Origin: an uncultured Gemmatimonadales bacterium
GTDB lineage: Bacteria; Gemmatimonadota; Gemmatimonadetes; Gemmatimonadales; GWC2-71-9
DNA: 64,000 nucleotides
Assembly: GCA_963704805.1 (NCBI GenBank)
Contig: CAVPHS010000001.1
Location: 850,496-914,495, forward strand
Reading direction: 5' to 3'
This document shows positions 4,034 through 15,810 of this stretch, one piece after another. How positions within the stretch are numbered: the first letter of the stretch is position 1; each line of letters begins with the position of its first letter. Both the position numbers and the translations under genes were made by a program. The notes under the pieces were generated by a model. The model had not been told where the DNA came from. It worked only from the letters and a program-made list of their open reading frames with translations, and searched no databases.

Positions 4034-4876
4034 CTAGCTGCCCCCGCCGACGATCAGCAGCACCGCGATGAGTGCGGCTGCGACCCCCGCCGTCTGCCAG
4101 GAGTTCAGACGCTCGCCCAGAAGGGCGCGGGCGAGCAGCACGGTGCTGGCTGGATAGAGTGAGCAGAGGGTGACCACCAGGCTCAGCGGGCCGAGCTGGG
4201 ACGCCACCAGGTAGAGGCCATTTGCCAGCATGTCGAGCATCCCGCCCCCGACGGCGAGTGCGGCAAGCCGCACGGGCATCCGTAGCGAGCGGCGTCCCAC
4301 CAGGGCGACGATGGTGAACAAGCTCACGGACGAGGCACGGGCGGTGAGGAGCGGCCAGAGACCGCTCGCCTGGTGCGTCCGTGCGAGGGCGAGCAGGAAT
4401 AATCCGATCGCGACACCGGACACGAGTGCCGGGCCCACGCCGGAGGAACGAGCGGGCTCGTTCGGGCTCGGCGTTTGACGGCTGACCAGCACGATCGCCG
4501 CAATCCCCACCAGGATGCCGACAACGGCGAGTAAGCCCGGTCGCTCTCCGAGCGCGATCGAGGTAACCACGGGAATGGCAACAGCAGCGAGCGCAGTGAT
4601 AGGCGCGACGACCGACATCGTCCCGATCGCCAACGCATGGTAGAGCAGCGCAACACCGACACCGCCCGCCAGGCCCGCGGCCGCGCCCCACCAGAGATCG
4701 GCCGCCTGTGGCGCTGCGGCTGGAAGGAGCGGCAGGACCAGGACGACCAACAGCAGCCCGCTTGCTTGCGAGAGCAGGACCACCGGAATGGCGGCGGCGC
4801 GCCGGGTGGCGATCCCACCCGTGAAGTCGGCAGCGCCGTAAACGACGGCGGACAGGATTGCGAGCAGATAGGGCAC
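4034..4876 (-). CDS. EamA/DMT-family transporter
   Basis: 280 aa, about 10 TM segments in a two-repeat EamA-like layout. It converges on kup with a 7-nt gap. Confidence 0.85.
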   Translation of the reverse strand: MPYLLAILSAVVYGAADFTGGIATRRAAAIPVVLLSQASGLLLVVLVLPLLPAAAPQAADLWWGAAAGLAGGVGVALLYHALAIGTMSVVAPITALAAVAIPVVTSIALGERPGLLAVVGILVGIAAIVLVSRQTPSPNEPARSSGVGPALVSGVAIGLFLLALARTHQASGLWPLLTARASSVSLFTIVALVGRRSLRMPVRLAALAVGGGMLDMLANGLYLVASQLGPLSLVVTLCSLYPASTVLLARALLGERLNSWQTAGVAAALIAVLLIVGGGS

Positions 4877-4935
4877 GGCGGCTCCTCTGCGAATGCTTCC
4901 GGTTGTCTTGATGTTCCCTTAATGCTCGCTGTGAA

Positions 4936-4957
4936 TTTCTTGATTATTTCCTAATAT
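4936..4957 (+). promoter_or_regulatory. Candidate response-regulator (KdpE-type) operator: 11-bp direct repeat TTTCTTGATTA / TTTCCTAATAT
   Basis: The two adjacent 11-bp half-sites lie in a ~35% GC island about 40 nt upstream of the first kdp-operon ORF. No experimental or motif-search support. Confidence 0.2.
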
Positions 4958-4995
4958 GCAGCTCACTATCGTCCGCGGCTGAGAAAGGGACATCC

Positions 4996-5109
4996 ATGCT
5001 CGACATCGTCTACATCGCGGTGACCGTGGCCTTCTTTGGTCTGATGCTCGCGTACGTACGTGGCTGCGAGCGACTCGGCCACGATTCCACCGGTGAGGAC
5101 CGGCCGTGA
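4996..5109 (+). CDS. Small hydrophobic peptide (37 aa) preceding kdpF
   Basis: MLDIVYIAVTVAFFGLMLAYVRGCERLGHDSTGEDRP has one TM helix. A GAGAAAGGGA Shine-Dalgarno-like element lies 6 nt upstream, and its TGA stop overlaps the kdpF GTG (GTGA). Confidence 0.4.
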   Translation: MLDIVYIAVTVAFFGLMLAYVRGCERLGHDSTGEDRP

Positions 5110-5195
5110 GTGCCCTCACGATCATCGGCACTGTGGTCTGCGTGCTAATCCTGGCGTATCTCGTTTACAGCCTGCTCAGGCCCGAGAAGTTCTGA
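5106..5195 (+). CDS. kdpF: K+-transporting ATPase subunit F
   Basis: 29-aa VSALTIIGTVVCVLILAYLVYSLLRPEKF. Length, single TM helix, the LxYLxYxL core and the position 10 nt upstream of kdpA all match KdpF. It is below the ORF-track size cutoff. Confidence 0.75.
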   Translation: MSALTIIGTVVCVLILAYLVYSLLRPEKF

Positions 5196-5205
5196 GGCGA
5201 TCTCG

Positions 5206-6921
5206 ATGACGCTAAACGGCTGGCTCCAGATTCTCTTCTTCGCGGTGGCGGTCTTCGCCATCACGAAGCCCGCGGGATTGTACATCCAACGCGTCTACGA
5301 CGGCTCGATGCGCTGGCTCACCCCCGTCGAGCGGGCGATCTATCGCGTCTGCGGCATCGACCCCGACGAAGACCAGCACTGGACCCGCTACGCCGCGGGC
5401 CTGCTGCTGTTCAGCGCGGTCTCGATGCTCGTCACGTACATCGCGCTGCGTCTTCAGGATCATCTGCCGCTCAATCCGTTCGCGCGCGGCCCGGTGCCCG
5501 ATCGCCAGGCGTTCGAGACGGCGGCGAGCTTCACGACGAACACGAACTGGCAGTCGTACTCGGGCGAGACGATGATGTCGTACTTCTCGCAGATGACGCA
5601 GCTCGCGTTCCACAACTTCGGGTCTGCTGCGGTCGGCGTGGCCGCCGCGATCGCGCTGGGGCGGGGCATCGCGCGCCGCTCCGCGGGCAAGATCGGCAAC
5701 TTCTGGACCGACCTGGTCCGGGGGACGCTATACCTCTTCCTACCGCTGTCGTTCATCCTGGCGCTGCTCTTTGTGCAGCAGGGCGCGATCCAGAACTTCG
5801 CGCACTATGTCACGGCCACCACGGTCGAAGGGGCAAAGCAGGTTCTGGCCATGGGTCCCGTGGCTAGCCAGTCGGCGATCAAGCAGCTCGGCACGAACGG
5901 CGGCGGATTCTTCAACGCCAACGCGGCGCATCCGTTCGAGAGCCCCACGCCGTGGACCAACTTCCTGTCGACGTTCGCGATTTTCATCATCCCCGCCGGC
6001 CTCACCTACACCTTCGGCCGGATGGTGAAGAACCAGAAGCACGGCTGGGCCTTGTGGGCCGCCATGTTCGTGCTGTTTGCGGCGGGGGTCACGACAGCCT
6101 ACTGGGCCGAAGCGCGCGGCAACCCGATTCACGCGGCCCGCGGCGTGGACATCGTGACGTCCGCCACGAATCCCGGCGGCAACATGGAAGGGAAAGAAGT
6201 CCGCTTCGGGATCGCAACCTCCGCTCTCTATGCCACGGTGACGACCGACGCTTCCTGCGGCGCCGTCAACAGCATGCATGATTCCTTCACGCCCCTCGGC
6301 GGGATGGTGCCGTTGCTGAACATCCAGCTGGGCGAGCTGATCTTCGGCGGCGTGGGGTCGGGACTCTACGGGATGATCGTCATGGCCATTCTGACGGTCT
6401 TCATCGCTGGCCTCATGGTCGGACGAACGCCGGAGTATCTGGGCAAAAAGATCCAGAGCCGGGAGGTCCGCATGGCAATGTTGTACGTGCTGATCTTCCC
6501 GGCGTACATCCTGGTCCTCACGGCCGCCTCCTCCGTGCTTCCGGACGGCCTCGTGGGTCGCAATAACGCTGGCCCGCACGGGCTCTCCGAAATCCTGTAC
6601 GCGTTCAGCTCCGTAACGGGCAACAACGGCAGCGCCTTCGCCGGTTTGACAGGCGGGACGTACTGGTACAACACGACCCTTGGCCTCGGCACCCTGTTCG
6701 GCCGGTTCGCGATGATGGTCCCGATGCTTGCGCTCGCCGGCTTTCTCGCCGAGCGGAAGACGGTGCCGGAATCGCTCGGCACGTTCCCCGTCACGACGCC
6801 GTTGTTCGTCGTGTTGCTCGTGGGCGTGATCCTGATCGTCGGCGCGTTGACGTTCTTCCCGGCGCTGTCCCTCGGGCCGATCGTCGAGCACCTGCTAATG
6901 AAAGCGGGGACACTGTTCTAA
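5206..6921 (+). CDS. kdpA: K+-transporting ATPase subunit A
   Basis: 571 aa, [11 protein letters not shown] and other KdpA hallmark segments. Confidence 0.97.
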
Positions 6922-8990
6922 TGGCTCTCACCAAGCGGCCCCTCTTCGATCCGCCGATCGTGCGGCGCGCCGTGCGCGACGCGTTCGGCAAGACCGTGAA
7001 TCTGCGGCACATGCTCCGCAACCCCGTGATGTTCGTGGTGCTCGTGGGCAGCGTGCTCACGACGGTCGTGCTGGTGGGCGACATCATCCGCGGCGGGGCG
7101 AACATAGGATTCACGCTGCAGCTCGCGGTATGGCTGTGGTTTACGGTGGTCTTCGCCAACTTCGCCGAGGCCATGGCCGAAGGGCGGGGCAAGGCCCAGG
7201 CCGAGTCGCTGCGGCGCTCGCGCACGCTGACGAGCGCGAAGCGCCTGAAGGACCCCAAGAACCGCGCGGCGTTCACGGCCGTGCCTGCCGACCAGCTGCG
7301 CAAAGGCGACATCGTCCTCGTGACGCCGGGTGAGTTGATCCCCGGCGACGGCGAAGCGATCGACGGTGTGGCCTCGGTGGACGAGTCGGCAGTGACGGGT
7401 GAATCCGCGCCGGTCATCCGCGAATCGGGCGGGGACCGCTCTGCGGTCACTGGCGGAACGAAGGTTTTGTCCGACTATCTCGTTATTCGCATCACGGCGA
7501 ATCCCGGCGAGACGTTCCTCGACCGCATGATCGGCCTGGTGGAGGGCGCCAAGCGGCAGAAGACGCCCAACGAGATCGCGCTGGTCATCCTGCTCTCGGG
7601 ACTGACGATCGTCTTCCTGTTCGCGGTGGTGACGCTCAAGCCGTTCGCGATCTACTCGGGAGGCGACGCGACCATTCCGATTCTTGTTGCGCTCCTCGTC
7701 TGCCTCATTCCCACCACGATCGGTGGCTTGCTGTCGGCCATCGGCATCGCCGGCATGGACCGGATGATTCAGCACAACGTCATCGCGATGAGCGGCCGCG
7801 CGGTCGAGGCAGCGGGCGACGTCAACACACTGCTCCTCGACAAGACGGGCACGATCACGTTGGGCAACCGCCAGGCGGTCGAGTTCGTGCCGGCGCCGGG
7901 CGTGACCAAGGAGTATCTCGCGGACCGCGCCCAGCTGGCTTCTCTGCCCGACGAAACGCCCGAAGGCCGCAGCATCGTGGTCCTGGCGAAACAATTCGGC
8001 GTGCGCGGCCGGAACCTCTCGGAAGAGGGGGATCGGCCGCACGTGGAGCTCGTCGCCTTTTCGGCCGCCACGCGGATGAGCGGGATCAACACGCAGGGCA
8101 CTCAGCTGCGGAAGGGTGCATCCGATGCAATTACGAAGTGGGTGCACGAGCAGGGCGGCGATATCCCCGCGGCGCTCAATACCGATGTCGAACGGATCGC
8201 ACGGGCGGGCGGAACGCCGCTGGTCGTGGCGGAGCGCGGCAACGGGAAAGCCCGCGCGCTCGGTGTCATCTATCTGAAGGATGTCGTGAAGGGCGGCATG
8301 CGCGAGCGCTTCGTGCAGCTGCGTACCATGGGCATCCGCACCGTGATGATCACCGGCGACAATCCGCTCACGGCCGCGGCAATCGCCGCCGAGGCCGGGG
8401 TGGACGATTTCCTCGCCGAAGCGAAGCCCGAGGACAAGATGGCGCTGATCAAGCGCGAGCAGGCGGGCGGCCGCCTCGTCGCGATGGCGGGCGACGGCAC
8501 CAACGATGCTCCGGCGCTGGCGCAGGCCGACGTCGCGGTGGCGATGCACACGGGCACCCAGGCGGCCAAAGAAGCGGGCAATCTGATCGACCTGGACTCG
8601 AATCCGACCAAGCTCATCGAGGTCGTGGAGATCGGGAAGCAGCTGTTGATCACCCGTGGCGCGTTGACGACGTTCTCGATCGCCAACGACGTCGCGAAGT
8701 ACTTCGCCATCATCCCGGCGATGTTCATCGCGACGTACCCCGCGCTGCAGGCGCTCAACATCATGCGGCTGCATTCGGCGCAGTCCGCGATTCTCGCGAG
8801 CGTCATCTTCAACGCACTCATCATCATCGCTCTGATCCCGCTCGCGCTGCGCGGGGTGACGTGGCGGCCCGCGCCGGCCGCAGTGATTCTGCGCCGCAAC
8901 CTTTGGATCTACGGCGTCGGCGGCATCCTGATTCCGTTTGCGGGGATCAAGGTCATCGACGTGCTGCTCAACCTGCTCCACCTGGTATGA
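6921..8990 (+). CDS. kdpB: K+-transporting P-type ATPase subunit B
   Basis: 689 aa with DKTGTIT, TGDN and [11 protein letters not shown]-type ATPase motifs. Confidence 0.97.
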
Positions 8991-9580
8991 CTATGCTCAA
9001 GAGCCAACTGCGTCCCGCGATCGTCGTCACGTTCGTGTTGATCATGATCACGGGCCTCATCTATCCGGGCCTCGTCACCGGCGTGGCGCAGCTCCTGTTC
9101 CCACGCCAGGCGAATGGCTCCCTGGTCACGGTCAATGGCCAGGTCGTCGGGAGCGAGTTGATCGGCCAGCAATTCGCGCGCGCCGAGTACTTCCACTCCC
9201 GTCCCTCAGCGGCGGGGAACGGCTATGACGACACCTTGTCGGCCGGCACCAATAAGGGCCCGACCGACTTGAAGCTCGCCGATACGCTGGTGGCGCAGGC
9301 GGTCGACAGCGCCGTGCGACTCGACGGCGCCGTGAAGGGATCGGTGCCCGCCGACCTGGCCACGCGCTCGGGCTCGGGGCTCGATCCGCACATCTCGCCG
9401 GCCAGCGCGTTCCTGCAGGTCGCGCGTGTGACACGCGCGCGCCATCTTGATTCCGCGGCCGTACGCGCGCTCGTGGACCGGCACGTCGAGGGCCGCACAT
9501 TCGGCTTGCTCGGCGATCCGCGGGTGAACGTGCTCATGCTCAACTTGGCGCTCGACAGTCTAACGAGGAGTCCTCGGTGA
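8987..9580 (+). CDS. kdpC: K+-transporting ATPase subunit C
   Basis: The ATG at 8987 overlaps the kdpB stop (ATGA). N-terminal TM helix and the [13 protein letters not shown] motif are present. The listed 8138..9580 ORF is an out-of-frame upstream extension. Confidence 0.93.
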
Positions 9581-10686
9581 ACGTACGGATGCTGGTCTTA
9601 GCAGGCGTAACCGCGCTGGTCGCTCCACTCGCACTGGCGGCCCAGGCCGCCGATTCGGGCAGCGGCGTGAAGCTCTCGGGATATGTCACGGCGTCCTACT
9701 TCTACGCGACGAACCCGACCGGTACCGCGATCGTGGGGCGGCTGTATGATCGCTTCCACGACGCGTTCATCGCCAACGCCGCGCGGATCACGTTCGAACG
9801 GCCCGTCGCGACCGACAAACGCGATGCCGGTTTCCGCGTGGACGCCCTCTTCGGCCAGAACGCCACGCTGCTCCAGTCCGCCGGTTTGTCTCTCGGCGCC
9901 CAGGGCGATCTTCCCCAGGCGTACGTCACGCTGAACCTCCCGACGGGCGGCGGCAACTACGTGCAGTTCAAGGCCGGGAAGATGTGGACCCTGCTCGACG
10001 TCGAGGTCGTTGACGAAGTGCTCAACCCCAACTTCTCCCACGGCTACCAGTACATCTATCTGACCAACTTCACGAACACCGGCTTCGGCGTGGACGCCAA
10101 GCTCTCGGCGAAAATCGACGCCCAGCTCCGGCTGATCAACGGTTGGGACGTCGTGGAGGACAACAACACGGGGAAGTCGTTCATGGGCCGGGTCGGGATC
10201 ACGCCGTCGGACAAGACAGCGCTCGCCTTCCTCGGCTACTACGGGCCAGAACAGGCCGACAACACGGCGAACAACCGCTACGGCGGCGAGTTCGTGGGGA
10301 CGTTCAAGCCGGGGTCCAAGACGACGATCTACGCACAGTTCGACGCCGGCGGCGAGCAGGGGGCTGCTGTTGGTGGTGGCGACGCGAAATGGTTAGGTGG
10401 CGGACTGTGGGGCGTGTTCGATCTCAACCCCAAGCTCGGTCTGGCCCTGCGCGGGGACTACATGGACGACCAAGACGGCGCGCGGACGCAGGCACTCGGC
10501 TTCCTCGCGGCTCCGAGCCGGCAGCTCGGGAGCGCTACGGTCACCCTGAACGTCAAGACCTGGCCACACGCTCTCGTGCGTCCGGAGCTGCGTTTCGAGC
10601 ACTCCAGCCAAGACGACTTCGGCAATCCGGGAGACCTGAGCAACACCCAGATGACGATCGGCCTGGCGTTGTCGTACATCTTCTAA
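9577..10686 (+). CDS. Outer-membrane porin-like beta-barrel protein inside the kdp operon
   Basis: 369 aa with a signal peptide (...LALAAQA), alternating beta-strand pattern and C-terminal ...LALSYIF. Its GTGA start overlaps the kdpC stop. Confidence 0.75.
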   Translation: MNVRMLVLAGVTALVAPLALAAQAADSGSGVKLSGYVTASYFYATNPTGTAIVGRLYDRFHDAFIANAARITFERPVATDKRDAGFRVDALFGQNATLLQSAGLSLGAQGDLPQAYVTLNLPTGGGNYVQFKAGKMWTLLDVEVVDEVLNPNFSHGYQYIYLTNFTNTGFGVDAKLSAKIDAQLRLINGWDVVEDNNTGKSFMGRVGITPSDKTALAFLGYYGPEQADNTANNRYGGEFVGTFKPGSKTTIYAQFDAGGEQGAAVGGGDAKWLGGGLWGVFDLNPKLGLALRGDYMDDQDGARTQALGFLAAPSRQLGSATVTLNVKTWPHALVRPELRFEHSSQDDFGNPGDLSNTQMTIGLALSYIF

Positions 10687-10701
10687 GGCCGAGCGGGTGA
10701 C

Positions 10702-11454
10702 ATGAAAGGCTACGCAGGGGCCGCACTCGTTCTGGCGCTGTGTACGGCGCTCGGCACGGTCGTCCTGGAATGGCTGTCCATCACCGACGTCGCCATGCTG
10801 TACCTGCTCGGCGTCGCCGTGCTCGCGATCTGGGCCAACCGGCGCCAGGCGATCTTCGCCGCGGTCCTATCCGTGGCGCTGTTCGACTTCTTCTTTGTGC
10901 CGCCGCGGTTCACCTTCGCCGTCACAGACCTGCATTACATCTTCACATTCGCCGTGATGCTCGTGACCGCGCTGGTGATCAGCCGGTTGGCCGAACGGGT
11001 GCGGAGTGAGGCCCGCGCGGCTGCAACGCGCGAGCGAGGCACCGCGGCACTGTACCCGATGCTCGGCGACCTGGTGGACGCCAACACGCTGGATGACGTC
11101 ACTCGAGTCATCAGCGATCATGTGCGCGCAGCCTTCGGTGCGGAGTCACGTGTGCTGCTGCGCCAGGCGGGTCAGCTCGCCCCCGTCGGTGTCCCCACGC
11201 CCCAGCCGGAACCGAATCGCCGACTGGCGGACCTGGCGTACCAGTCGTGGGAGTCGACCGGGCGGGCCACCCGCAATTTCCCCAACGCCGATGCGCAGTA
11301 TCTGCCTCTGGTTGGCAGCCATGGCAGGCTTGGCGTGCTCGAGGTGCATCCCGATGACCCTGCCCGCTTCGACGATCCCGCCGTCCAGTGGTTGCTGCAG
11401 ACCTTCGCCGCCCAAGCGGCGCTAGCAATCGAGAGGGTTAGGGCCGTAGCTTAG
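10702..11454 (+). CDS. Stand-alone KdpD-core paralog (DUF4118 membrane domain + GAF-like domain, no N-terminal sensor or kinase domains)
   Basis: 250 aa, alignable by eye to KdpD residues ~400-640 ([14 protein letters not shown].../[16 protein letters not shown]... versus [14 protein letters not shown].../[16 protein letters not shown]...). It ends where the HisKA domain would begin. Confidence 0.8.
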
Positions 11455-11461
11455 CGTCCTC

Positions 11462-14143
11462 ATGACAGGACGCCGCCCGGATCCTGAAGCGCTGCTGGCG
11501 CGCGTGCGCGAGGAAGAGCGCCGGGCGGGGCGCGGCAAGCTGAAGATTTTCTTCGGTGCCTCTCCCGGCGTCGGCAAGACGTACGCGATGCTCGAAGAGG
11601 CTCGCGCCAGGAAGCGGGCCGGGGTGGACGTCGTGATCGGCGTCGTCGAAACGCACGGCCGGACGGAAACCGCGGCGCTGGTCGAAGGCCTCGAAGTCCT
11701 GCCGCGGCGCGCGATCGAGTATCGCGGCGTCACGCTGAAAGAGTTTGACCTCGACGCGGCGCTCGCCCGCCATCCCTCGCTCATCCTCGTCGACGAGCTG
11801 GCCCACACCAACGCTCCCGGCTCCCGCCACGCCCGCCGCTTCCAGGACGTCGAAGAGTTGCTCGGCGCCGGCATCGACGTGTATACGACCCTCAACGTGC
11901 AGCACCTCGAGAGCCTCAACGACGTCGTCGCGCAAATCACCGGCATCCAGGTCCGCGAGACCGTGCCCGATTCGATGCTCGAGGAGGCCGACGAGCTCGA
12001 GGTCGCGGACCTGTCGGCCGAGGATCTGCTCAAGCGGCTGGAGGAAGGGAAGGTGTACGTGCCGGAAGAGGCGGCGCGCGCCATCGACCGCTTCTTCCGC
12101 AAGGGCAACCTCATCGCGCTGCGTGAGCTGGCGCTGCGTCGCGCTGCCGAGCGCGTGGACGCCCAGATGCGCGGCTACATGCGCGAGCACGGCATCCACG
12201 AGACTTGGCCCGCGGGCGAGCGCGTGCTCGTGTGCATCGGGCCGAATCCCGCCGGCGCCCGGCTGGTGCGCGCGGGGAAACGCATGGCAACGAGCCTCAA
12301 GTGTGATTGGACGGTGCTGTACGTCGAGGCGCCGGGGCAGCGGATCTCCGCGAGCGATCGTGAGGCGCTGGTGCAGAACCTCCAGCTCGCCGAGGAGCTC
12401 GGTGCGCAGACGGCGACGGTGAGCGGTCTCAACGCGGCCGAGGAGATGCTCGCCTACGCCCGCGGAAACAACATGACGAAAATCGTCGTCGGCAAGCCGA
12501 CGCACAGCCGCTGGCGCGACACGCTGTTTGGCTCGACCCTCGACCGGTTGGTGCGCGGATCGGGAGACATCGACGTCTATATCATCACGGGTGACGTCGA
12601 TGCGGCGCGCAGCGTTCCCGCACCGCGCGCGGGCCGCCCGTCGCCGCTTGGCGAGTACGTCCGTGCCGGCCTCGTCGTGGTCGCGTGCGCGGCGATCAGC
12701 TTTCCGCTGTTCAACGTGCTGTCGGTGACCGACGTCGCGATGATCTTTCTGCTCGGCGTCGTATTCGTCGCCTCGCGCTACGGACGCGGGCCTTCGGTGT
12801 TCGCTTCGCTGCTGTCGATTGCCACATTCGACTTCCTCTTCGTTCCGCCGCGGTTCACGTTCGCCGTCTCCGACGTTCGCTACGCGCTGACATTCGGCGT
12901 GATGCTGGCGGCGGCGCTGGTGGCGAGCCATCTCACGCTGCGCATCCGTGCCCAGGCACAGACTGCGCGCGACCGCGAGCGCCGCACCGGAGCGGTGTAC
13001 GCGATGAGCCGTGAGCTGGCCGCGGCGCGCACGCCGGCCGACGTGATCGCGATCGCAACCCGACATCTTGTGGACACGTTCGGCGCCGAGATGCACATCC
13101 TGATGCCCGATCAGACGGGGCGACTGGAAGGCGGACAAGTCGACGAGAAGGAGCGCAGCGTCGCGCAATGGGTGTTTGACCACGGGCAGCGCGCGGGCGC
13201 CGGGACCGACACGCTCCCCAGCGCCAGTGGACTCTATGTTCCGCTCGCTGCCTCCACGGGAGTCATCGGCGTGCTCGGTGTGCGTGCCGCCGACCCGGCG
13301 CGGTTCGAGGATCCCACGTTACTCGAGCTGCTCGAGACGTTCGCGGGGCAGGCGGCGCTCGCCCTGGAGCGCGCGCAGCTCGCCGAGCACGCCAAGAAGG
13401 AAGAAGTGGAGGTCGAAGCGGAGCGGTTGCGAACATCGCTGCTCAGCTCGCTGTCCCACGACATGCGCACGCCGTTGGGCGCCATCACTGGCGCTGCCAG
13501 CAGCCTTCTGGAGGAGCCGGGCAAAGGGGCCATCGCCGACCCCGGCAAACGGGAGCTGCTCCAATCGATCGTCGACGAGGCAAACCGGATGAATCGCCTC
13601 ATCGCCAATCTGCTCGACATGATTCGGGTCGAGAGCGGCGCGCTCAAGGTCCAGAAGGAGTGGCAGCCGCTGGAGGAGCCCGTGGGGGTGGCGTTGATCC
13701 GGCTCCAGGACCGGCTGCGGGAGCATCCCGTCCAGGTGCGGCTGCCGCCCGACTTGCCGCTCGTTCCGATGGATGGCGTGCTGATCGAGCAGGTGTTCGT
13801 CAATCTGCTGGAGAACGCGGTGAAGTACACGCCACCGAGTACGCCGATCGAGATCTCAGCGTCGCAAATCGACGGGCGGGTGCGCGTCGATGTGGCCGAT
13901 CGCGGGCCGGGCATACCGCCGGGAGAGGAGGCCCGCATCTTCGACAAGTTCTACCGCGTCGTTGGCGAAGGGCCGGTAAGCGGCGTCGGCCTGGGCCTCA
14001 CGATTTGTCGCGGCATTATCACCGCGCACGGCGGGCGCATCTGGGCCGAAAACCGGCCCGGCGGTGGTGCGGTGTTCCGCTTTACCCTGCCGCTGGGGAG
14101 CGAGCCGCCGCCCAGCGTACCCGGAGAGCCCGGCGCCGAGTAA
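11462..14143 (+). CDS. kdpD: Sensor histidine kinase KdpD
   Basis: 893 aa. Contains the N-terminal KdpD domain ([10 protein letters not shown]), a Usp-like region, DUF4118 TM block, GAF, H-box SHDMRTPL and HATPase_c. Confidence 0.95.
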
Positions 14144-14152
14144 CTTGGCCCG

Positions 14153-14842
14153 ATGGCCGAGGCCGGTCCGGTTGCTCTGCTGATCGAAGACGAGGTCCAG
14201 ATGCGGCGCTTCCTGCGCGCCGCACTGCAGAGCCACCAGTACCAGCTGGTGGAAGCCACGACCGCCCGCGAGGGCCTGTCTCAGGCCGCCGGCCGCAACC
14301 CCGACGTGATCCTGCTCGACCTCGGATTGCCCGATGGCGATGGCATCGATCTGACGCGCCGCATCCGCGAATGGTCGAAGGTGCCGATCATCGTGCTGTC
14401 GGCGCGGGGGCGCGAGGAAGACAAAGTCGCCGCGCTCGATGCCGGCGCAGACGATTATCTCACCAAGCCGTTCGGTATCGGCGAGCTGCTGGCGCGCCTG
14501 CGCGTGGCACTGCGCCACAGCTCGCCGGCGGTCAATGCGCCGGCGTTTGCGGTCGGGGGCCTGCGCGTCGACTTCGAGCACCGCCGGGTATTCGTCGATG
14601 AGGTCGAAGTGCACCTCACGCCGACGGAGTACAAGCTGCTGGGCGCGCTCATTCGGCATGCCGGCAAGGTTCTCACGCATCGCCAGCTGCTGAAGGAGGT
14701 GTGGGGGCCGAACGCCGTCGAGCACACACACTATCTGCGGGTATACATGACGCAGCTGCGGCACAAGCTCGAGAAGGATGCCGCCCGGCCGCGTTATTTG
14801 CTGACAGAGCCAGGCGTGGGGTACCGACTGCAGGCGGAATGA
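14153..14842 (+). CDS. kdpE: Response regulator KdpE (OmpR family)
   Basis: 229 aa with a receiver domain (ILLDLGLPDGDG) and a winged-helix domain (LTPTEYKLL). Confidence 0.93.
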   Translation: MAEAGPVALLIEDEVQMRRFLRAALQSHQYQLVEATTAREGLSQAAGRNPDVILLDLGLPDGDGIDLTRRIREWSKVPIIVLSARGREEDKVAALDAGADDYLTKPFGIGELLARLRVALRHSSPAVNAPAFAVGGLRVDFEHRRVFVDEVEVHLTPTEYKLLGALIRHAGKVLTHRQLLKEVWGPNAVEHTHYLRVYMTQLRHKLEKDAARPRYLLTEPGVGYRLQAE

Positions 14843-14862
14843 AACGGCAGGATCTTGATCGA

Positions 14863-15810
14863 TCAGTTACGCGGAGTCGCAACCTTGAGAGAGTCAGGGG
14901 TGGGATTGCGTCGCGTGTAGGTGAATGCGAAGGCTTTCGTTGACCCCCTGCCTTCAGGCCTGACGCCGTATCGATAGTGGGCGCCCACCGATCCGAGCGC
15001 GATGCCCATTCCGAACGCGGCGCGGCGGGCCCAAGGACCCTGTGCGAGTCGGCCAGAACCGGCGGTCGCGTTGATGAACACGATGTCGTGAAACGACAAC
15101 GTCGTCCCAAAAGCAAATTCGATTTGGTTGGGCTCGGCTTCGCGCAACCGCCCCATTCGCGCTCCGGCATTGAGCTGGAAGCGAGCCGCCGTCGTGACCA
15201 CGTCGTGGCTGACGGCGATTTGCGCTCTCACATCGGCCGGCGTGCCGAGGTCCGACGACCACGCGCGGTCGACGACGCTGGCGACGGCGGTGTGCCGCCC
15301 CATGCGAATGTGGACCGCGCCTCGAGCTGTGACCCCGCTGTCGCTCACGCCAAGCAGCTCGTCGTACTCGTGGCGCAAGCCTGCAGACACCGTTGGCGCG
15401 TCCCAGCGGTGTGCACGCCGTCTATGGACACATACCGCGCCATCACGCGCAACCCGGCCAGTTCGGGATACTGAGCGATGAGGTCTGCGTCGATGACGTC
15501 AGAGACGTGCGATTCAGCAAATTGCAGCTGCCAGAGCAGCGCCCACCTTCAATCGCGCCGCCGCCAATACGGTTGTGACGCTGCCGAATTCGTTCTGCTC
15601 GAGGCCAACCAGCACTCCGCGCAGGGAGGGGGCGGCGGCCGGAACGGTCCACAGCGCGCGCCACGCGCCGGCGGCTCCGTCGCCACCGCGTCCCCGGTGG
15701 TGGCTGGAGCCGCTCGCTCGAGATCGCTCAGGTGCGAGGACTGGGCCCGGACCGCCTGGAGCGGGCCGAACGGAGAGGAGACTAGCGCACAACCAGGCGG
15801 CGCGTCTCAC
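14863..15810 (-). pseudogene. Disrupted beta-barrel (OMP-like) gene, at least two frameshifts
   Basis: Protein-like text runs across three minus-strand frames: ...GVLVGLEQNEFGSVTTVLAAARLKVGA / LLWQLQFAESHVSDVIDADLIAQYPELAGLRVMARYVSIDGVHTAGT / VSAGLRHEYDELLGVSD...AFAFTY. Frame changes fall near 15530 and 15400. Confidence 0.4.

Follow-up and report, generated by a model that had tools for sequence, protein, structure and literature searches.

The kdp operon of an uncultured Gemmatimonadales bacterium raises the question of why a locus that already encodes a complete KdpD should also encode, directly beside it, a second protein made only of the middle part of KdpD. The KdpDE/KdpFABC system is a textbook example of two-component-controlled transport, and the site and mode of K+ binding by KdpD are still debated. 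We analyzed a stretch of 64,000 nucleotides that carries this operon (hereafter, the window), in which the following genes were placed:

5206..6921, + strand: kdpA (Pfam)
6921..8990, + strand: kdpB (Pfam)
9008..9580, + strand: kdpC, given as the stretch that matches the Pfam domain, the start codon not being fixed (Pfam)
9577..10686, + strand: BBP2/OmpL-like porin gene, inside the kdp operon and directly upstream of mini-KdpD (PF07642, 2e-59; same place in relatives)
10702..11454, + strand: mini-KdpD (P0001), a kinase-less KdpD core paralog of 250 aa (open reading frame; identity to KdpD; family; dN/dS)
11462..14143, + strand: full-length kdpD, 893 aa, with KdpD-N, Usp, DUF4118, GAF, HisKA and HATPase_c (Pfam, NCBIfam)
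14153..14842, + strand: kdpE, OmpR-type response regulator (Pfam)

The mini-KdpD frame runs from an ATG to a TAG and is separated by 15 nt from the porin gene and by 7 nt from kdpD. BLASTP aligned residues 4-245 of its product with residues 399-637 of the adjacent 893-aa KdpD, with 110 of 243 positions identical (45%), 5 gaps, and an E value of 1e-58. Together with the Pfam assignments, this bears out the initial annotation, which had described a stand-alone KdpD core paralog that contains the transmembrane (TM) and GAF domains only and immediately precedes a full-length kdpD. The two pairs of 16-residue motifs quoted there are present as written in both proteins. The N-terminal KdpD/Usp and HisKA/HATPase modules had been described as missing, and Pfam indeed gives DUF4118 and GAF_3 alone for mini-KdpD, with no KdpD-N (PF02702), Usp, HisKA, or HATPase_c, while all of these are found in the neighboring KdpD. 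The protein can be divided as follows:

10711..11031, + strand: DUF4118 four-helix membrane domain, aa 4-110 (Pfam PF13493, 1.9e-30; PDB 2KSF, 2e-17; AF2)
10882..10917, + strand: 12-residue TM3-loop-TM4 motif, aa 61-72, covering the last part of TM3 and the loop to TM4 (conservation)
11017..11085, + strand: juxtamembrane Arg-rich helix linking TM4 to the GAF domain, aa 106-128 (identity comparison; continuous helix 75-126 in the AF2 model)
11107..11436, + strand: GAF domain, aa 136-245 (Pfam GAF_3; Foldseek 4Y2F/4QPR, target-normalized TM-score 0.81; alignment)

Both domain assignments lie well above their gathering thresholds, DUF4118 scoring 105.2 bits against 28.4 and covering model positions 1-107 of 107, and GAF_3 (PF13492) scoring 37.7 bits against 27 (3.3e-9). 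From 89 family members, AF2 produced a model of mini-KdpD (pLDDT 84.5) with four TM helices (2-21, 27-44, 47-65, and 75 onward), the last of which extends as a long helix and is followed by a GAF fold. Its top Foldseek match is the E. coli KdpD GAF domain (4Y2F/4QPR; E of 4e-8 for 4Y2F), and sequence matches in the PDB are to the same domain and to the E. coli KdpD TM domain, 2KSF. The chain begins 3 residues ahead of TM1 and ends ∼5 residues past the GAF alignment and the last GAF helix, and in the alignment its C terminus coincides exactly with the point from which KdpD extends into its DHp H-box helix. Minis and KdpD cores agree on the residue, at ≥90% conservation, in 10 of the 12 positions of the TM3-TM4 motif, and the columns of the motif are invariant or nearly so across 89 minis; Phe61, Asp62, Phe63, Phe65, Val66, Pro67, Pro68, and Phe72 are common to minis and Gemmatimonadota KdpD. 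Mini-KdpD is thus predicted to be a membrane protein with the TM and GAF domains of KdpD and no catalytic or phosphotransfer domain.

Full-length KdpD (E. coli b0695; NF007793) has homologous DUF4118 and GAF domains, the same loop motif, and the same operon setting as mini-KdpD, and the E. coli core is about as similar to the cognate KdpD core (42% identity) as mini-KdpD is (45%). Unlike KdpD, mini-KdpD has neither KdpD-N, the serine kinase/ATP-binding domain, nor Usp, nor the DHp/CA module with its phosphohistidine, and it therefore cannot phosphorylate KdpE or KdpB. The NCBIfam KdpD equivalog reaches only 154.6 bits on mini-KdpD, against a cutoff of 1123, and matches over model positions 400-646 alone; because all of the defining features fail save the TM and GAF core, the protein is not a KdpD kinase (NF007793/PRK10490). 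NF038185, which describes a KdpD-like non-kinase potassium sensor, gives no match to mini-KdpD and matches only residues 5-376 of the neighboring KdpD.

Split KdpD systems also place KdpD domains on separate polypeptides within kdp loci, but they partition the full domain set or keep the N-terminal half, whereas here a complete KdpD is accompanied by an extra chain with the TM and GAF domains only (PMC11018627). The initial annotation had stated that the known split arrangements retain only the N-terminal domain, which is incorrect, the commonest split being one in which a TM/GAF/DHpCA kinase chain is encoded apart from KdpD/Usp (Silberberg 2024, PMC11018627). A survey of 5495 species distinguished full-length KdpD, KdpD/Usp alone, KdpD/Usp plus TM/GAF/DHpCA, and truncated DHpCA; additional variants were disregarded wherever a full-length KdpD was found, and the single supplementary entry given as "TM domain, GAF domain", from Serratia, begins within Usp and may represent a fragment (PMC11018627). 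Many representatives of ∼470-520 aa in our data begin with DUF4118 and continue with GAF, HisKA, and HATPase, which is the TM/GAF/DHpCA chain of split KdpD, and several frames of 517-600 aa in the sampled Gemmatimonadota may be of the same type or may be cut by contig ends. In the literature on DUF4118, on the KdpD GAF and TM domains, and on truncated-paralog heterodimers, we found no description of a KdpD paralog with TM and GAF domains only.

Two further explanations of mini-KdpD could be discarded. It does not serve as the partner of an orphan KdpD-N/Usp protein, as the only PF02702 match in the genome is the neighboring kdpD, and a readthrough or frameshift fusion with kdpD was rejected since the two reading frames differ and the fused domain order would be senseless. 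A promoter and terminator scan of positions 4700-15200 gave nothing above shuffled sequences, a result as compatible with an internal promoter as with none. The BBP2/OmpL-like outer membrane porin gene lies between kdpC and the regulators in many Gemmatimonadales kdp operons (the window, L032, L035, L038, L055, and L056). It begins at the stop codon of kdpC, or overlaps it, in L055, L056, and the window, and it is kept in the operon with or without mini-KdpD. In L055, which comes from a Gemmatimonadales metagenome-assembled genome (MAG), the kdp genes are followed 3 kb further downstream by a gene for a bacterial gasdermin (Bact_GSDM; 10714-11538).

A short copy of kdpD next to an intact one could simply be what is left of a tandem duplication, nonfunctional and still decaying. 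The distribution of the gene would fit such a remnant: in the survey of kdp loci that the initial annotation had proposed, a kdp-linked short copy was found in 9 of 301 sampled Gemmatimonadota genomes (G000, G046, G054, G007, G185, G226, G068, G210, and G056, from four genera of one family), all beside a full-length kdpD. As ∼50-60 of the 301 genomes bear a KdpD-type core, this patchy occurrence corresponds to ∼15-18% of the sampled KdpD-bearing genomes, and the gene is missing from G062, a member of the genus represented in the window, in which kdpDE is present. All copies that we read are nevertheless intact with a conserved ATG, none of the 12 genome copies has a frameshift or a stop, and those lying downstream of kdpD carry a GGAGG-type Shine-Dalgarno sequence. 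Eight ortholog pairs gave dN/dS values of 0.14-0.22 at dS of 0.5-1.5 (Nei-Gojobori), similar to the 0.10-0.30 obtained for the homologous core of the cognate KdpDs.

The family is also large for a decaying gene. Restricted by length, a search of 5.8 billion proteins gave 370 matches, the best 120 of which share 59-87% identity with mini-KdpD and are nearly all 230-270 aa long, and more than 120 relatives (clusters) of 230-270 aa occur in Gemmatimonadales. Named members appear as [quoted passage not shown] or, in JGI, as "sensor histidine kinase KdpD"; the latter is a misannotation, as minis cannot be kinases. Across 89 family members 42 columns are invariant, and 49 positions are ≥90% conserved with the identical residue in minis and Gemmatimonadota KdpD cores. 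The initial annotation had allowed for a recent decaying duplicate, with relaxed dN/dS and absence from relatives. The purifying selection, the intact copies, the invariant columns, and the many length-conserved relatives refute this, and the gene instead is old and present in several genera. With precise domain boundaries arguing in the same direction, a nonfunctional remnant is most improbable, and dN/dS and the tree described below effectively refute it.

The initial annotation had also suggested an alignment and phylogeny against KdpD, and we inferred a maximum-likelihood tree of 69 cores (LG+C20; support given as UFBoot/SH-aLRT). The kdp-linked minis of Gemmatimonadota form one clade (100/100) nested within the Gemmatimonadota KdpD cores (97/84), with a stem branch of 0.34 substitutions per site, and this clade is sister, although weakly (93/57), to a KdpD subclade whose members carry minis. 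The placement therefore points to one duplication of the kdpD core inside Gemmatimonadota, followed by vertical inheritance with losses. The clade can be defined by a length of 230-270 aa, TM and GAF domains only, monophyly, and adjacency to kdpD, and the mini-KdpD of the window shows each of these.

Gene order differs among the members. Genera g9, g16, and g21, like four metagenomic contigs, have the order kdpC-porin-kdpD-mini-kdpE, whereas the genus of the window, g1, has porin-mini-kdpD-kdpE. Because the g1 minis form a nested subclade (100/98), the mini-kdpD order of the window is a derived relocation in which adjacency to kdpD was retained. The ancestral position lay between kdpD and kdpE, usually with an ATGA stop/start overlap, so that the description of the gene as directly upstream of kdpD holds for the genus of the window but not as the ancestral state. 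In four genome loci that we read directly, the kdpD stop and the mini ATG overlap as ATGA; a fifth has a 1-nt overlap, and gene calls indicate an overlap in two further metagenome loci. Altogether, the Gemmatimonadota minis adjoin a full-length kdpD in 9 of 9 genome loci and in 4 of 4 metagenome loci.

Several loci have histories of their own. In L044 (G062:C31), kdpD and kdpE are ∼87% identical to those of the window while kdpA, kdpB, and kdpC are 57%, 70%, and 51% identical; the locus has a mosaic appearance, as though the pump genes had been replaced independently of the regulators. Three genomes of one genus, G210 (L038), G185 (L035), and G226 (L036), have closely related KdpD cores; the mini of G210 belongs to a deep, G056-type subclade and those of G185 and G226 to the main type, which suggests replacement or the differential loss of two old mini lineages. 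The mini of L034 (G007:C258) groups with its own genus, g1, and its KdpD core with that of G139, from another genus (96/76), a conflict that hints at recombination within kdp loci. In L050 (942-8004), from a 351-kb metagenome contig, gene calling breaks kdpA into three pieces and kdpD into two, with the mini and kdpE intact; the split calls are probably assembly frameshift errors, not pseudogenes.

We then compared constraint along the protein, using the mean pairwise identities among nine minis and among their nine KdpD cores:

TM domain: 0.70 in minis, 0.72 in KdpD cores
Juxtamembrane helix: 0.64 in minis, 0.84 in KdpD cores
GAF domain: 0.56 in minis, 0.64 in KdpD cores

The TM domain is the best-conserved part of mini-KdpD and, at 0.70 versus 0.72, is as fully constrained as in KdpD, while the GAF domain is the least conserved. 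The helix that in KdpD transmits the signal is relaxed in minis, as would be expected if no signal must reach a DHp domain. Within the GAF domain, Asp561, Glu564, Trp570, and Thr584 are conserved only in KdpD and are variable in minis. Minis in turn have conserved residues of their own, Arg69, Arg142, Arg209, and Trp230. Given the lower constraint on the juxtamembrane helix and the GAF domain and the variability of the KdpD-only GAF positions, cytoplasmic sensing by minis may have changed.

This pattern bears on the idea that mini-KdpD, as a decoy or sink, titrates away from KdpD some cytoplasmic partner that binds the GAF domain, such as EIIA-Ntr/PtsN or a small ligand. In Sinorhizobium fredii, the smallest fragment that binds PtsN1 is the GAF domain of KdpD (PMC9239096), the genome of the window has four genes with PTS_EIIA_2 domains, and an EIIA gene lies 4.5 kb from one betaproteobacterial mini. 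However, the decoy would have to act through the least conserved part of the protein, the rhizobial PtsN-binding residues lie in insertions, and no EIIA gene is present in the kdp locus (5206-14842). A soluble GAF domain would moreover suffice for titration, yet it is the TM domain that is best conserved. We consider a decoy very unlikely.

Free-standing TM and GAF cores arose at least three times in the data examined, a count based on the 256-column alignment underlying the tree. A betaproteobacterial clade (100/99), which includes the Burkholderiales MAG protein P0211 together with P0282, is separate in the tree, and its family has dozens of members of 260-290 aa named Burkholderiales or Betaproteobacteria. 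In four of the five contexts these minis lie in or beside a kdp locus, in differing positions and orientations; kinase-less KdpD cores were located beside kdp genes at L048 5764-6591, L051 3574-4353, L058 7001-7807, and L059 7001-7825. In a Burkholderiales MAG (L048), kup follows the mini after 18 nt in the same orientation, and the mini is divergent from kdpFABC. Elsewhere it is found upstream of kdpF, directly after kdpC with kdpD 4 kb away, or convergent with kdpE, and in the fifth context it is not kdp linked and adjoins a gene for a DUF4118-PAS-GAF sensor. One further candidate, P0289 (316 aa), was rejected as a mini since it retains a HisKA remnant in an unrelated context and is a truncated kinase.

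The betaproteobacterial arrangements raise the prospect that mini-KdpD is a regulatory subunit of K+ transporters, its TM and GAF domains docking on KdpFABC or Kup and gating or stabilizing them according to K+. The gene adjoining kup and divergent from kdpFABC, the copy that follows kdpC with kdpD 4 kb off, and the fact that the TM domain is the most constrained part would all suit such a role. PelD offers a precedent, as it is likewise a non-kinase inner membrane protein with DUF4118 and GAF domains and belongs to a membrane complex as the regulatory subunit of the Pel synthase (PMC7890745). The comparison covers the shared Pfam domains, and PelD, unlike mini-KdpD, is not derived from KdpD, is encoded in pel operons, and has a degenerate GGDEF domain through whose I-site c-di-GMP is sensed; streptococcal PelD is without a GGDEF domain (PMC7890745). 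Mini-KdpD is not a PelD, having no GGDEF domain, a kdp rather than a pel context, and a descent from KdpD. In the Gemmatimonadota, moreover, it is kdpD that the genes always adjoin, whether through an ATGA overlap or across 7 nt, and not kdpABC, and no contact with KdpFABC is known for the KdpD TM domain. A transporter subunit is thus a rather unlikely explanation.

The third clade is formed by Gemmatimonadales proteins with DUF4118 and GAF domains (100/100, on a long stem), with ∼60 members of 276-294 aa. It never occurs in a kdp locus and is next to a Hanks-type Ser/Thr kinase gene in each context read (L040 7516-8346 in G053, L041 3697-4581 in G146, L042 7210-8046 in G236, and L060 6001-6855), the kinases being of the Pkinase+PD40/Tricorn or Pkinase+TPR type. 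These proteins could be sensor partners of the Ser/Thr kinases, but chance adjacency is possible in kinase-rich genomes. Since this clade exists, the TM and GAF module can be kept outside the kdp locus. It might be argued from this, and from the betaproteobacterial mini beside the DUF4118-PAS-GAF sensor, that mini-KdpD is an autonomous membrane sensor for a non-Kdp pathway and that it adjoins kdpD merely because it arose by tandem duplication. Against such independence, the linkage to kdpD outlived the move from downstream to upstream of that gene, the stop/start overlap is maintained across genera, and an independently derived clade is also kdp linked with varying positions and orientations, which together make an autonomous sensor distinctly unlikely.

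The reading that we prefer is that mini-KdpD is a transmitter-less K+-sensing module that associates with KdpD through TM and GAF surfaces and tunes its output, a proposal to which we would give about an even chance. Mini-KdpD would be a translated and selectively maintained inner membrane protein, equivalent to the K+-sensing core of KdpD without the KdpD/Usp module and without DHp/CA. The kdp operon would yield it together with KdpD, and after insertion in the membrane it would associate with KdpD through the homologous TM and GAF surfaces, either in mixed dimers, the form put forward in the initial annotation, or as a homodimer that docks laterally. In this way it may tune the K+ threshold of KdpD or its kinase/phosphatase balance, and possibly its serine kinase output; KdpDE would then have a third component, one without a transmitter. 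The close spacing or stop/start overlap with kdpD suggests coproduction, perhaps in similar amounts. A pure poison-subunit model is unattractive for this reason, because similar amounts combined with preferential heterodimer formation would silence most of the KdpD. The preferred reading is favored by the constant adjacency to kdpD, the constraint on the TM domain, and the kdp linkage of the betaproteobacterial clade; the reduced constraint on the juxtamembrane helix and GAF domain, the clade found outside kdp loci, and the patchy occurrence among KdpD-bearing genomes count against it.

RetS reportedly modulates GacS without phosphorylation, at the dimer interface of the histidine kinase, and is said to act through DHp contacts, a domain that mini-KdpD lacks. 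MgrB and SafA are small membrane proteins that act on PhoQ; unlike mini-KdpD they are short peptides unrelated to their kinase, and the likeness is conceptual.

In E. coli KdpD, the proposed K+ sites are in the TM domain, for external K+, and in the GAF/C-terminal cytoplasmic part, for internal K+; external K+ inhibits the kinase and internal K+ stimulates the phosphatase, and control of the N-terminal serine kinase by K+ is seen only in a membrane-like environment (PMC11018627; PMC5936718). For work on structure and binding, a natural, conserved 250-aa protein that comprises just the two domains supposed to contain the K+ sites offers a ready-made minimal subject.

More broadly, and tentatively, we suggest that the TM and GAF core of KdpD may be an autonomous, portable module that has repeatedly been freed from the kinase and that in kdp loci forms a third component, entering mixed assemblies with KdpD that set the K+ threshold; we hold this wider proposal to be possible, though somewhat short of probable. 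If true, it would amount to a general "receptor without transmitter" means of tuning two-component systems. Mini-KdpD is apparently an undescribed extra part of KdpDE potassium control, and the repeated, independent retention of such cores beside kdp genes predicts an undescribed regulatory layer, a third component of the system.
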